NCBI GenBank assembly: GCA_035516795.1
Contig: DATIZX010000079.1
Location: 9,084 to 73,083, forward strand
Length of the DNA stretch: 64,000 nucleotides
Origin: Verrucomicrobiia bacterium
GTDB lineage: Bacteria > Verrucomicrobiota > Verrucomicrobiia > Palsa-1439
Reading direction: 5' to 3'
Within the stretch, counting starts at the first letter, position 1; every line of letters starts with the position of its first letter. This document shows, in pieces, positions 3,001 to 9,000 of the stretch. The position numbers were made by a program.

Positions 3001-6000
3001 GCATTGTGGATCCGCCACGACGAAGTTCCGCTGTTGTGTTCGGGCTTCTTCTCGAAAGGTCCGTATGCAAACCTCGCACATGGAACGACTCACTCCTGTT
3101 TCTGGTTCAGCAATCTTCGGCTCGGCATGTCCAGCGTAATACCCTCCCGGTTTATCAGCTGGATCACGACCGTGGGATGGAAGGTCTAGTCCCATCTCCT
3201 TCGCACGTCGTATGACGTCGTCCACGGACTTGCCGCCAGTGCTTGAAGACTTACCGCTGATGCTTTCCGCACCACTGGAGCCAGCGGCCACGGTTTTGCT
3301 CTGCTGGCTCGTTGGCAATTGGCTGTGCCTCTCTAACGCCCGCTCACGAGCGAGAGATGCTTTGTTCATGCTGCTCGCATCCTCCTTGCTCGGAGCGATA
3401 TCCTCGCCGAACGTGCCGGCTCGGCCTTGAATCACTTCCGGATGAGAAACCTTCTGCCGCTTTGTTGTATGTTCAGTGGACGTATACGTTGCTGGTTCTC
3501 CACGAGAGTACCGTGAGGGCTTAGACGATGATCCTGCCTTACCGGGTCTCGGTCGAAGCGGTTGACTCAGGACCACATCAACTGGTTTATCGGTCTGAGA
3601 GCGTTCTTTTTTGAGAGTGTTGAGAATGTCCTGCATCCAAGCATCATCGGCACCTTCTTCAACCACATCCCGTTTGACCTTCCCGCTCCTCTTAGCCGAT
3701 TCCGTCTGTAAGATAGGTCGCCGCCTGCTACTCGCCCTGGGGTCTTGGAGATGCTCGGGGTGATCATCGCTGGGCACTGTATTCCCTCGCGGGGGTCGAC
3801 TGGCGGGCCGCTCTTGAGAGACCTTTTGCAGGGGCTCCTTGGAAGGTGGCGCTTGGCCCGATTCGGAGCGCTCCTCGGAATCTCTAGGTATTTGGTTTGG
3901 TGGGTTAGGGCGCAGGGGGAGTTTACTTCTCACATTACCAACGCCTGATTTGACTCCGCTTATGATGCCGCGTTTCGCATAACCCTCCAGTTTCCCAATT
4001 GCCAGTTGAACCAAAGCTCGTGCAATGATTTGCGCGGCTATATCAATTTCGCCCTCCTGTTTGGCATGCGCTGCAATGGAAAGGGTCTCGGCGACCGATC
4101 CGACCTTTTGCAGTAGCTCCATAAGTCCTAATGCTAGTTTCGCAATGGGCACGGCGTCAGTCAATTGGTCCAACACCGTCTTCTCCACCTCCTGCAAGGC
4201 TTTGATTCCAAGGCCCTCTTTGTGCCGAAGTAATTCAGTCGCCGCCATCCAACCAACATGATGTTTTGCGCGATTCAAAGCCCGCAAGACCTTCTGTGGA
4301 TCATAATCCAAGGGTGAGTGTTTCTGTTGGGGATGGCGGTAGTTTGAGGAAACTATGATCGCGATTCCAGCATTGCCTTCGGCGCGCGTATTCTCAACGT
4401 CTCGAGTCGACTTTAGAATTTCTTTTGCCTCTTTTTGCAGTGGAAGTGTGTCTTGAGTGAGCGAACGCATTCTTATTACGGCCTCACGCTTTGGGACGAA
4501 TTGAACGGAACCGTCATCACCTAACCGGATCAACTGAACAGAGCCTTGAGCCGTTCTTCCTGTTTGCGAAAGGAATTGACCCATAAAATACGTTCCGGGG
4601 GGGAGCGTCGTTCCGTTTAGATCGAAATGCGGGTTTTCACCTTCGATGTGCCCGTGGCGATCCAGAACGTAAAGCCGACTGGCGACATACCAGATCCGGC
4701 TTGTTACCTCATACAGGCTTGTGCTCGGACGGAGAACATCCGCAAAATTGACTTTCTGTTGACGCCGTTTGGTTTCGGCGGCGGAGAGTGACAGGAGAAG
4801 TTTCCTTGGTGTTGTACGTTTGAGCCTTTCGATGCCGGCGCGAACCTCCGAGCCGCCACCAATATCGTCGGCCATACGTTCTGCTAAAGTCTCAGGTTGT
4901 TCTTCCAGATTCGCAGCGACAAATGACCTCTGCGTTGATACTCTACCCTCTGGCTCGCGAGGCTCTCTCTGCAAGAGGGGAGCCCGTCCGGAGGGAGGAT
5001 GAAGGAGGGCTTGATCTAATTTAGGTTGTGCGGAGCCTGGAAAATCCATTGCACCTATAAGGCAGTCGGCGACCCTTCGAGCGTGGCTTTCAAACGCATC
5101 ACCATCTGGGCTGTCATAGTGGGGCGAGAAGGCTCCATTCCCTTGCTGTAACGTGTGTGCGAGTTCATGAGCAAGTAGTTTTTTCCCTCTTTGAGTCATT
5201 GGCGCATACTGCCCTGTGTCGAACACGATGTGATTTCCGACTGTGTAAGCATTTGCCTTCACGGCACGAGCTGACGCAGCGGCAGCGGGACCCGTGTGAA
5301 TTCGCACCTGTCCAAAATTATGAGCGAAACCATCTTCCATCGAACTGCGCGTCACGGAATCCAGAGATCGCCCAGTGCCACTGTTTACAACGTCCTGGAC
5401 AACCGAAGGAAGTGAGTTCAGTTCGGACGGAGGAAGCAGTTTGCTTGCTTGGATTGCCGCCACGGTCGCACGATTCCCTACGCTCCTCTGCAAATTTAGG
5501 ATGCCGGAATGCGGGTGTGGCGATTGGCGGCCGTGGGACGGTCGTGGGGAACTCGCTTGTTTGGAGGTCGCCGCTTTACCAGGACTCGCTTTGGACGTTG
5601 TGTTCATGAACATTTCCGCGATTGCTTCTCATCGGGCTTCGACCCGCATTCGTCTCTTCGACGGCCAATGCCTTCCCCATTTTCTGAAATTCGCGGCGGG
5701 TGGCTTGGAGCACGTGAGCCATAGTCACAATGCCGCCGTCTTCCGCAGCCAGAAAGGAAGCCGCCAATGCAATGTTGCGGATGTTGCCGCCGGACAATTT
5801 GAATTGACGGGCCAGGAAACCGAGGTCCAGATCGCCGGCCCGCGGGGTTTGTTCGGGCCAGATGCCGGCCCAGATTCGCTGCCGGAAGGTTTCATCCGGG
5901 AACGGGAAATGGACCGTGAAGGCGAGCCGGCGAACAAAGGCATCATCAAGATTGGCAAGGAGATTCGTAGTGAGGATCGAGACCCCCTCGTATTCTTCCA

Positions 6001-9000
6001 TTTTCTGTAGCAAGTAGCTGATCTCGATGTTCGCGTATCGATCGTGTGAATCGCGTACCTCCGAGCGTTTACCCAGGATCGCCTCGCACTCGTCGAGGGC
6101 GAGAACGCTGTTGGAGTTCTCCGCGGCAGCGAAAACGGCACTCAGGTTCTTTTCCGTTTCCCCGATGTATTTGCTAACGATCTGCGAGAGATCGATCTTG
6201 TACAACTCCAAGCCAAGAGAATTGGCAATGACCTCGGCGGCCATGGTCTTGCCCGTGCCGGACGGCCCCGCGAAGAGCGCATTCACACCCTTGCCCATCG
6301 ACAACTTGCAATCAAAGCCCCATTGTTCGAGGACGCGATCGCGATGTTCGACGCGCTGACAAATTTCGCGGAGTTGCGCCAGAGAATCTTCGGGCAAGAC
6401 GATGTCCGACCAGGTGTGTTTCGGATCGATTTTGCGCGCGAGCCCATTGAGCTTCTGGTTGGATTGCAACCGACAGGCTGCGTAAAGGTCTTGCGTGCGA
6501 ATCACCCCATGGTCGTCCGCGCGGGAACGGGCCAAGTCCATGGCTGTTTGCACCGCATTACGCACCTGACCGGGGTTGAGCCGGAATTTGCCAGCCACAG
6601 CGGTTACCTCTGGTTTCGCATCGGGAGCGACAGACCCATTTAGATAGCGATTCCATAGTTCTTGGCGTGTTGACGCTCCCGGTGTCGCAATGGCCATGCT
6701 GAGAAAGGGGCGTTCGGCATCCAGCCCGCGTGGCCGCCACGGTGTTTCACCCAGCAGAAACCACTCCGTGTCTGGATGTTCAGCAGCTACGGCGAACAAC
6801 GAACGCAAAGCATCATTCGCGGAAACGTCGCCGCTCACAAGAGCGTCAAAATTATCAAGGCAAAGCGCTGCGCGCTGCAATGTTGCCTCGCGACATAACA
6901 ATCGCAGCACTTCTTCGAAGGAAAGTGTGTGACCGATCATCTTCGAGGTATTTGCACACAGCAGAGACAAGCCGAGGTCGCGGCAAACGCATTCAGCAAA
7001 TGTCCGTTTACCGGCGCCGGCCGGCGCGTGCAAGTGCATCACCGGTTTTCCATACCCAGCCGTGGCTGCTAACGCGTTTGACCTGACAAAATCGCTCGCC
7101 GCTTGTTTTGAGTGATCATCGAGAATCAAATCGTCCCAGCCCATTTGTGGAGCGGTCACATGCGCCAGGGACGCCAAGCGCAAGTCGATTTGATCTGACC
7201 CGAGGATGAATGCAGCCACGCGGTCATCCAGTTTCAGAAACTTGGACAGTAACGGGGATGGACTGTCCAGCGATGGCTCAGAGATCTCTATGAGATGGTG
7301 TTTCAACAGCGGAGCGCCGGCGGCAAACGATGACCTAGCTTCTACCTTTTCCTGAGGCGTCACGCAGAAAAGTTTCAATGCCAGATCAATCCCCGGCCTT
7401 TTCCGAGTAACATCGTCTTGCAGGAACGCATACACTTTGTCGTACTTGCGATCGATTTCGGGCGCTAAGCAGAGCAGCAAACATTGCTGTTCGAACCAGT
7501 TGAGGCCGAAAGCTGCGGCTACATCCGGCAACGCCATATATGACCCGTTCCTAAGGCTCGCCACTTGCCTCGCGCGAAGCTCCGCGGTCGAGTTTTTGAT
7601 GGTTTGGATCAGTATTTTCAACTCCGAACAGTTGGATTCCAGGCGATCACAGGCCGCCGGTGCCGTCAGGCTTTCGATCTCCTCTTCGGTCAGCACAAGT
7701 CCCTTCAAATGGTCCAATGGATGAGACGGCTGTTGACGGAAATCGAGAAAAGCCAACCGCAACCGCAAGTCCAGCGATCTCAGTTCAGCCATAATGTGGT
7801 CCAAGCTCGTCACGAATGGAACGGGGACGTCCTCGGCGATCATGGTTTTCCCCGTGACAGAGTCGATCTCAGTCGGTGCGATGTTCGAATTCAAATGGCG
7901 GAATATCCTTGGAGAAAGCCAGCGGCTGAATCTGAGCAGGCTCCGCACGCAACGGCAGAGCCTCCGTTACCCAACACTGACGAACTGCGCCCTACACTTC
8001 CTGCAAAACTAAATGCTTCCGATCGATCAATACGCGAGCCCGTTGGATCGTATCCAACAAAATGGCCACACGCCTGCCATCGTCCCACTCCTGTTCAACC
8101 CGAGCGATCGTCCCTTCCAAGGGGCCATGATCGACGCAAACCAAGTCTCCCGGGCGCAATGGGGTTGGCGCTAGTCTAGCGTAACCATCTGCAGTCACGA
8201 GCGCGCGAACTGATTGAATAATCTCTTCCGCCACCGGTGTCGGCGTGCCATGTGTGCCAACCACCCGTAGGACTCCGGGCGCGTAACGTACGCCATCCAG
8301 CTGGTTGGCGAGACAGAATCGCGCGAAAAAATAGCCCGTAAATAGCGGGCGAATCCTGCGTTGGGCTATATTGGCTCGTGGCCGCGTTTCCTTAATCTCA
8401 GGGAAGAAGACTTCCATACCCTGTGAACCTAGGCGCGAGGAAGCCATCCGTTCACGACCCGGCTTGGCCTGCACCGCGAACCAATGAGTTTCGAAACAGT
8501 AATTTAACATTCAAGCACGTGTCCGATACTATTTCCAGCTTGGCCGCCCCACTCCGCTCGGCAGTAGTAGGTCTTGCCATCTGTTCCTTGGACCGGTCGG
8601 AGTTTGTTTCTCAGAACCAACGAATCCACCGCCGTCTGTACCTCGGAAATCGACTGCTGCAAACGCTGTTCTAGGAACCACCACGCAATGATTCCATCCA
8701 AAGTATCCTTTGCACCAGGATTGGCATCAAGATGCCCGAGAATGGCTTCCTCAAGACTTGTATCAATGTTGGATTCCATAGTTGGCTCGCCTACAAGGCG
8801 CATTAGCAACCAGTGTGCCGACCGAAATTGCTGCGGTTTTTGTGGCCGCGGTCGTGCAAGGTGGATGAATTTGTCCTGCCACCACGATGCTCAGCCTGTG
8901 GAGACCCGTTCGTTTACAGGAGATTTGCCAAGGATGTTTTTGTCGCAACTTGCGCGGGCGATTATCCTAGATGATTCACGAGAAGGCGGCGGACGGCACC

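Follow-up and report, generated by a model that had tools for sequence, protein, structure and literature searches.

What does the N-terminal third of the ATPase of an extracellular contractile injection system (eCIS) do? The question is raised by a 64,000-nucleotide stretch of DNA from a Verrucomicrobiia bacterium (assembly GCA_035516795.1, contig DATIZX010000079.1, positions 9,084 to 73,083), which we will call the window. On its minus strand, at 5576..7843, is a gene for an AAA+ ATPase of 755 amino acids, and the next gene in the same direction encodes a toxin with a DUF4157 domain. According to the original prediction, the ATPase is Afp15-like, but its first ~370 residues have no recognizable motif and might be a module for recognizing cargo or DUF4157. 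With a probability of roughly 0.85, we think that the protein is a cargo-loading AAA+ ATPase of the Afp15/Pvc15 family, with the family's standard architecture: an N-terminal domain (N) and two AAA modules (D1 and D2). The N-terminal region is of a known type: it consists of PF22977, the domain that defines the family, and of the beginning of D1, which corrects the impression that this third of the protein is unexplored.

The assignment to an Afp15-like family of eCIS ATPases is borne out by the similarity to Afp15 itself, from the antifeeding prophage of Serratia entomophila (pADAP). The two proteins have a collinear BLASTP alignment (34% identity between residues 104-724 of the window protein and 90-693 of Afp15; E = 4e-101), although divergence keeps BLASTP from aligning the first ~100 residues. 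They share their Pfam architecture as well, as Afp15 also has PF22977 (E = 6.6e-20) and PF00004. More broadly, PF22977 is followed by PF00004 in all of the 120 best database homologues. The gene is also in an eCIS operon: downstream of the ATPase and on the same strand are genes with Pvc16_N, Phage_sheath_1, Phage_T4_gp19, CIS_tube, and Phage_base_V domains. (The gene order is partly from the ENA contig, which extends beyond the window.)

Unless stated otherwise, residues are numbered from the ATG at 7843, and features are on the minus strand. The maximal open reading frame (ORF) is, as originally described, 790 amino acids long, at 5576..7948, with a GTG start. Its first 35 codons (7844..7948) have no support from homologues and are used by neither gene caller. 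The JGI/ENA call runs from the ATG at 7843 to the TAA at 5576-5578 (755 amino acids) and is identical to ours, while the NCBI call (HUJ10365.1, 738 amino acids, labelled "AAA family ATPase [Verrucomicrobiae bacterium]") begins with the ATG at 7792. In homologues, the conserved motif [YF]xxS[LW]xH[LI]xxEL is preceded by a median of 18 residues. Starting from ATG 7843 would place 12 residues ahead of this motif, versus 47 for GTG 7948, and starting from ATG 7792 would remove the conserved residues F10, S13, L14, and H16. Because ATG 7843 fits the leader length of the homologues and ATG 7792 cuts off conserved residues, ATG 7843 appears to be the best-supported start, and the 35 codons from GTG 7948 to ATG 7843 are probably not translated.

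Contrary to the claim that the N-terminal region has no recognizable motif, residues 8-225 (7169..7822) match the Pfam family PF22977, "Winged helix domain, variant", with E = 1.2e-51. The length of ~370 residues was mistaken too: the degenerate P-loop is at residues 307-317 of the 790-residue ORF and hence lies within the supposed region. Therefore, the "370 residues" are made up of 35 codons that are probably not translated, a 235-residue domain for which a Pfam family exists, and the initial third of D1. When we searched 1.84 billion proteins with the N domain (residues 1 to ~235) alone, we retrieved 3,155 cluster representatives with E no higher than 0.001, and in all but one of the best 150 matches the domain is N-terminal. 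Across phyla, positions A127, E129, Y134, Y140, Q142, D143, D144, V145, T146, and P150 (YAYLQDDVTRKRP) are nearly invariant.

Structure prediction, which had been proposed as a check on the domain boundaries, resolved the borders of N, D1, and D2. For residues 1-255, AlphaFold2 gave a model, based on 68 sequences, with a mean pLDDT (predicted local distance difference test score) of 88. It contains a long helical hairpin (helices at 13-37 and 71-98) and then a bundle of helices whose wing is a beta-hairpin. In the full-length model (mean pLDDT of 87), the N domain is followed by two AAA modules and then by a disordered tail.

The N domain has the winged-helix fold of MarR- and ArsR-type regulators, and it might bind nucleic acid, in which case the role of the ATPase would be regulatory or linked to DNA. 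But the domain is just 4-17% identical to those regulators, it has no match to the MarR, ArsR, or PadR families in Pfam, and in the model the helix at the expected recognition position (H178-181) spans just ~4 residues. The protein-binding winged helices of kleisin and Tfb2 score equally well, and for regulation the locus already has dedicated genes, for a sigma-54 activator and for a NusG-like protein. We consider binding to nucleic acid to be very improbable.

All four of the motifs that were originally quoted (GPSGTGKT, DECEAI, SKYIGETEK, and HAPAGAGKRTF) are present in the ATPase. D2 (residues ~450-725; 5669..6496) is a canonical AAA module: it matches PF00004 with E = 2.7e-31, and a phmmer search of the PDB matches it to D2 of p97 (E = 3.5e-32). 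Its Walker A motif is GPSGTGKT (residues 526-533; 6245..6268) and its Walker B motif is DECEAI (D584-E585; 6077..6094). SKYIGETEK (6149..6175) is not a nucleotide-binding motif but the region of pore loop 1 (K558-Y559-I560-G561), whose counterpart in Pvc15 is K528/Y529 (PMC11495950). The arginine fingers in the second region of homology (R638-R639; 5927..5932) are invariant columns of the alignment. More generally, N627 (at the sensor-1 position), the arginine fingers, and the four pore-loop residues are invariant or nearly so in 68 sequences. Two arginine fingers in the second region of homology, together with an aromatic pore loop, place D2 in the classical clade of AAA+ proteins.

D1 (residues ~240-445; 6509..7126) is degenerate, as had been noticed for its P-loop. 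In the full-length model, it is a complete AAA alpha/beta-plus-lid module with the AAA beta-alpha-beta pattern, and it has a weak match to AAA_16. Its P-loop, HAPAGAGKRTF (residues 272-282; 6998..7030), lacks both the first Gly and the Ser/Thr (APAGAGKR). The Walker-B-like LDNFD (6845..6859) keeps the Asp, but the catalytic Glu is replaced by Asn. With no Ser/Thr in the P-loop and with D-N instead of D-E in Walker B, D1 is predicted to be unable to hydrolyze ATP.

The same pattern is found across the family. We took a census of 83 proteins: besides the window protein and Afp15, it covered 80 loci from the genomes of different species and a locus on a Nostoc plasmid. The canonical P-loop, GxxxxGK[ST], is present in D2 of 83 of 83 proteins and in D1 of just one, and DE is present at the Walker B position in D2 of 83 of 83 and in D1 of just four. 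D1 usually has GPYGxGK as its P-loop, with R, Q, E, or K next where S/T would be expected.

The N/D1/D2 layout is not an oddity, because Afp15, the proteins in the census, and the published Pvc15 share it. In Afp15, the P-loop of D1 is also degenerate (GMPGSARAH), although Afp15 lacks the P-loop Lys that the window protein keeps. We compared the window protein to Pvc15 via its published description, with Afp15 as the proxy for its sequence. Pvc15 comprises N (1-205), D1 (206-434), and D2 (435-698); its N domain has a winged-helix-like fold, its D1 is catalytically deficient, and D2 is its sole active ATPase domain (PMC11495950). The Walker A motif in D1 of Pvc15 has Arg instead of Lys. In other words, the N domain and the dead D1 are family-wide features that have already been described, and they are not peculiar to this gene from the Verrucomicrobiia. 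Alg15, from the AlgoCIS of Algoriphagus, is a non-structural loader of the DUF4157-containing proteins Cgo1 and Cgo2, and the layout of its cargo (N-terminal domain, DUF4157, C-terminal domain) is that of the window's toxin. For Alg15, we compared descriptions only; the Walker B Glu is at position 292 in Alg15 versus 585 in the window protein. The position of the gene in the operon does vary. The gene for Afp15 adjoins the gene for the Afp16/DUF4255 terminator, but it is at the 3' end of its operon, flanked by the tape measure and the terminator, while the gene for the window's ATPase is at the 5' end and precedes those for the cargo, Pvc16, and the sheath.

The window protein also resembles p97/VCP/Cdc48, NVL, and Msm0858, which are type II AAA+ proteins of the classical clade, in its tandem AAA fold and its N-D1-D2 layout. 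In a Foldseek comparison, ~560 columns align to p97/VCP, CDC48, and NVL, spanning both AAA modules. Unlike these proteins, the window protein has a winged-helix variant instead of a double-psi barrel as its N domain, its D1 is apparently catalytically dead, and it is dedicated to an eCIS operon. Among the PDB matches from phmmer and Foldseek, no chain was named as an eCIS ATPase. We also considered the anti-phage ATPase IteA (NCBIfam NF042959) and rejected it: the score was 121 bits, versus a cut-off of 510, with D2 alone matching.

The cargo gene (2881..5613) directly follows the ATPase. NCBI calls it from the ATG at 5613 (HUJ10364.1, 910 amino acids) and JGI/ENA from the ATG at 5607 (908 amino acids). 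The protein has a disordered, Ser/Pro-rich N-terminal domain (residues 1-83), an eCIS_core/DUF4157 domain (PF13699, residues 84-160, E = 6.7e-29), a low-complexity linker of ~230 residues that is rich in Ser, Pro, and Arg, and a C-terminal SsdA-like deaminase (SsdA_C, E = 1e-7; C-terminus at 3067-3249). The DUF4157 domain contains HELAH, an instance of HExxH (5155-5169), and the deaminase domain has the zinc motifs HAE (3115-3132) and CxxC (3067-3078). This architecture matches the description of eCIS cargo (Geller et al. PMC8213781; bioRxiv 10.64898/2026.05.27.728243). Overall, this Verrucomicrobial eCIS appears to carry a standard loader ATPase and a DUF4157-deaminase cargo, and the import of this beyond annotation is small.

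Experiments with two homologues, Pvc15 and Alg15, support a role for the ATPase in loading cargo (PMC9054023; PMC11495950; bioRxiv 10.64898/2026.05.27.728243). In the Photorhabdus virulence cassette (PVC), Pvc15 is required for signal-dependent loading, and it lowers the fluorescence of signal-tagged mRFP (PMC9054023). D2 of Pvc15 by itself stabilizes signal-tagged Pnf, and ATPase activity and loading are both lost in the E555Q mutant, upon deletion of D2, and upon deletion of N-D1 (PMC11495950). In AlgoCIS, deletion of Alg15 or mutation of its Walker B motif yields normal-looking particles without cargo, and purified particles do not contain Alg15 (bioRxiv 10.64898/2026.05.27.728243). On the cargo side, the disordered N-terminal domain is required for loading into AlgoCIS, while DUF4157 and the C-terminal domain are dispensable (bioRxiv 10.64898/2026.05.27.728243).

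By analogy, we infer that the window ATPase acts as a hexameric unfoldase, not part of the structure itself, and fills the tube with cargo. In the mechanism that we propose, the D2 motor of the hexamer would grip the disordered N-terminal leader of the DUF4157/SsdA-like deaminase toxin that is encoded downstream. The ATPase would then unfold the toxin and thread it into the lumen of the tube. D1 would be a non-catalytic scaffold ring, and the N domain would be an adaptor or regulatory domain.

Alternatively, the ATPase might act mainly in particle assembly or in recycling of the sheath, rather than in loading. In the type VI secretion system, the AAA+ protein ClpV binds the sheath through its N domain, and the gene for the eCIS ATPase is nearly always beside the genes for Pvc16 and the sheath. 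The ATPase activity of Pvc15 depends on other PVC proteins (PMC11495950), which also fits a role of this kind. But the particles of the Alg15 mutants look normal and lack just the cargo, Alg15 is not found in the purified particle, and deletion of Pvc15 abolishes cargo loading (PMC9054023). Furthermore, the window protein is p97-like (classical clade) and not Clp/Hsp100-like. A ClpV-like function in place of loading seems quite unlikely.

If the ATPase is a loader, then what does its N domain bind? We would give roughly even odds that it couples the ring to a conserved component of the particle, rather than to the variable cargo. We favor docking over cargo recognition because the motifs of the N domain are nearly invariant across phyla, while cargo leaders are variable. 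We also favor docking because the N domain is kept at loci where no nearby DUF4157 was detected, and because N-D1 of Pvc15 is dispensable for stabilization of cargo but needed for particle-dependent ATPase activity. That Pvc16 is the most constant neighbor of the ATPase in related loci counts for docking as well.

The original prediction had cast the N-terminal region as a module for recognizing cargo or DUF4157; on this reading, the gene overlap would enforce joint synthesis of the two proteins and so let the ATPase capture its cargo. In classical AAA+ proteins (p97, NSF, ClpV), it is common for the N domain to bind a substrate or an adaptor. Among the 80 related loci from genomes, the region downstream of the ATPase could be assessed in 75, and the next recognizable gene was an adjacent DUF4157 gene in 23 of these (often at -4 to +26 nt) and an adjacent Pvc16 gene in 26. 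However, a DUF4157 gene was found within 7 kb of the ATPase in just 42 of the 80 loci; in the other 38, none was detected, yet the N domain is present. PF22977 is also present in Afp15. PVC cargo (Pnf and Pdp1) lacks DUF4157 (bioRxiv 10.64898/2026.05.27.728243), yet the N domain of Pvc15 has the same winged-helix-like fold. Furthermore, loading into AlgoCIS survives the deletion of DUF4157, Pvc15 without N-D1 still stabilizes signal-tagged cargo, and the overlap, which falls within an unconserved tail, is itself not conserved.

A crude comparison of evolutionary distances gave only weak correlations. Using 24 adjacent pairs of ATPase and DUF4157 proteins (23 from related loci and one from the window), we compared the pairwise distances for each part of the ATPase to those for the DUF4157 core (mirror-tree/Mantel test). 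For N, the correlation was r = 0.21 (Mantel p ~0.01; partial r = 0.17 if controlling for D2), which is small and confounded by divergence. For D1, it was r = 0.18 (p ~0.04), and for D2, r = 0.11 (not significant). The signal is confounded because N and D1 diverge more than D2 (mean distances of 0.67 for N, 0.75 for D1, and 0.42 for D2). Taken with the points above, the idea that the N domain recognizes DUF4157 is not supported, and recognition of cargo by this domain is unlikely.

A narrower form of this idea concerns a leader motif in the N-terminal domain of the cargo. The sequence LNLQRSVGNRATV (5461..5499) is an instance of [LIVMF]Q[RKQS]xxGN..VQR, and in related loci from several phyla, 25 of 54 DUF4157 ORFs contain [LIVMF]Q[RKQS]xxGN (the loci with the motif include L002, L003, L005, L010, L021, L042, L058, and L073). 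LNLQRSVGNRATV is a candidate handle for loading, and such a handle (LQRxxGN) would suit a recognition module. The AlgoCIS preprint reported that leaders are not conserved between systems (bioRxiv 10.64898/2026.05.27.728243). Specifically, the PF22977 domain could be the receptor for this motif in the disordered N-termini of DUF4157 cargo, with the tight or overlapping junction between the genes promoting the capture of nascent toxin. The toxin would then be captured before it folds and harms its producer. We think that the chances of this are slim.

Several points weigh against our view of the window protein as a loader whose N domain docks on the particle. The functional evidence for loading comes from the homologues Pvc15 and Alg15. 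The deletion in Pvc15 removed N and D1 together, so the roles of the two are not separable, and some of the statistics in that study are marginal (adjusted p ~0.12) (PMC11495950). D1 might not be just a scaffold: it may bind nucleotide without hydrolyzing it, because GxGK or GxGR is kept in D1 of 44 of the 83 family members. N and D1 correlate slightly better with the DUF4157 core than D2 does, which leaves some room for a cargo-related role. What PF22977 binds is a question for the whole family (over 3,000 clusters) and was already posed in the literature on Pvc15, and this locus makes it no more tractable.

We now turn to the junction between the ATPase and cargo genes. The out-of-frame overlap was described correctly, and it persists under two independent gene calls: it is 38 nt (5576..5613) if the cargo starts at ATG 5613, or 32 nt for ATG 5607. 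There is no ATG, GTG, or TTG other than these two before the conserved part of the DUF4157 protein. The overlap comprises the last 12 codons and the stop codon of the ATPase, whose C-terminal tail (residues 726-755; 5579..5668) is unconserved. The tail has 31 residues, versus a median of 17 for the family, and pLDDT is below 50 for residues 737-755. Across the adjacent pairs in related loci, the distance from the stop codon of the ATPase to the first candidate start codon of the DUF4157 gene ranges from -53 to +88 nt, and many are between -4 and +26 nt, so the genes are often closely spaced, while a long overlap is not a conserved trait. The predicted folding of RNA from the junction does not exceed that of shuffled sequence (z = 0.05). 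On visual inspection, the cargo start lacks a strong Shine-Dalgarno sequence, while the sheath gene has AAGGAGAAGG ahead of its start. A scan of 5400-11700 for sigma-70 promoters and terminators gave no signal between the genes of the operon.

Because the genes overlap, with no terminator or sigma-70 promoter between them, co-transcription of the ATPase and the cargo is well supported. Translational coupling, which had been proposed on the basis of the overlap, is plausible. The overlap itself looks like a local accident of an extended, disordered tail, with a geometry that is specific to the lineage and incidental, because it is sited in the unconserved tail and is not a conserved feature of related loci. 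Nor is the order of loader and cargo genes fixed, because it is reversed in the Nostoc plasmid locus (L001). This is on a conjugative plasmid, pn3 of Nostoc sp. UHCC 0926, and its ATPase is 43% identical to the window protein. There, a gene for a DUF4157 protein of 2,074 amino acids is followed by a hypothetical gene and then by the ATPase.

The ATPase and cargo are part of a co-directional array of genes: a sigma-54 activator, an ORF of 91 amino acids, a NusG/RfaH/UpxY-like gene, the ATPase, the DUF4157/SsdA_C toxin, a Pvc16_N terminator, and the sheath. Beyond the sheath are a gp19-type tube gene, several small genes, CIS_tube, one gene without a Pfam family, and a Phage_base_V spike. The tail terminator (Pvc16/Afp16-type; 1898..2803) has an extra C-terminal CarboxypepD_reg (Ig-like) domain. 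In L001, too, a protein encoded upstream is annotated as "carboxypeptidase-like regulatory domain-containing". The sheath gene (1..1879), with its strong Shine-Dalgarno sequence, is partial, as it leaves the window at the left end.

The upstream end of the eCIS operon appears to be a dedicated regulatory head. The NusG/RfaH/UpxY-like antiterminator paralogue (7992..8510) is directly upstream of the ATPase, and the 91-residue ORF (8504-8779), which has no Pfam family, precedes it. In the intergenic gap before that is a candidate -24/-12 element of the sigma-54 type, cGGCACactggTTGCt (8805..8820), which is a single match to the consensus with one mismatch. Its placement and orientation are right, as it is upstream of the operon and beside the gene for a sigma-54 enhancer-binding activator (8976..10385). 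A NusG-like gene beside the ATPase is not a shared arrangement, because phmmer found none at 81 other loci (80 from genomes and the one on the Nostoc plasmid).

Upstream of the sigma-54 activator, an ORF of 119 amino acids (10441-10800) has a precomputed match to Pfam SpvB, and it could be a toxin-complex-related fragment beside the eCIS. Genes at 40-52 kb of the window were considered as further eCIS genes but proved to be ordinary housekeeping genes. Elsewhere in the window, on the plus strand, are two giant ORFs: one of 1,947 amino acids (11650-17493), in which GH2, GH35, alpha-galactosidase (Melibiase_2), and Ig-like domains are fused, and another of 1,929 amino acids (34213-40002).

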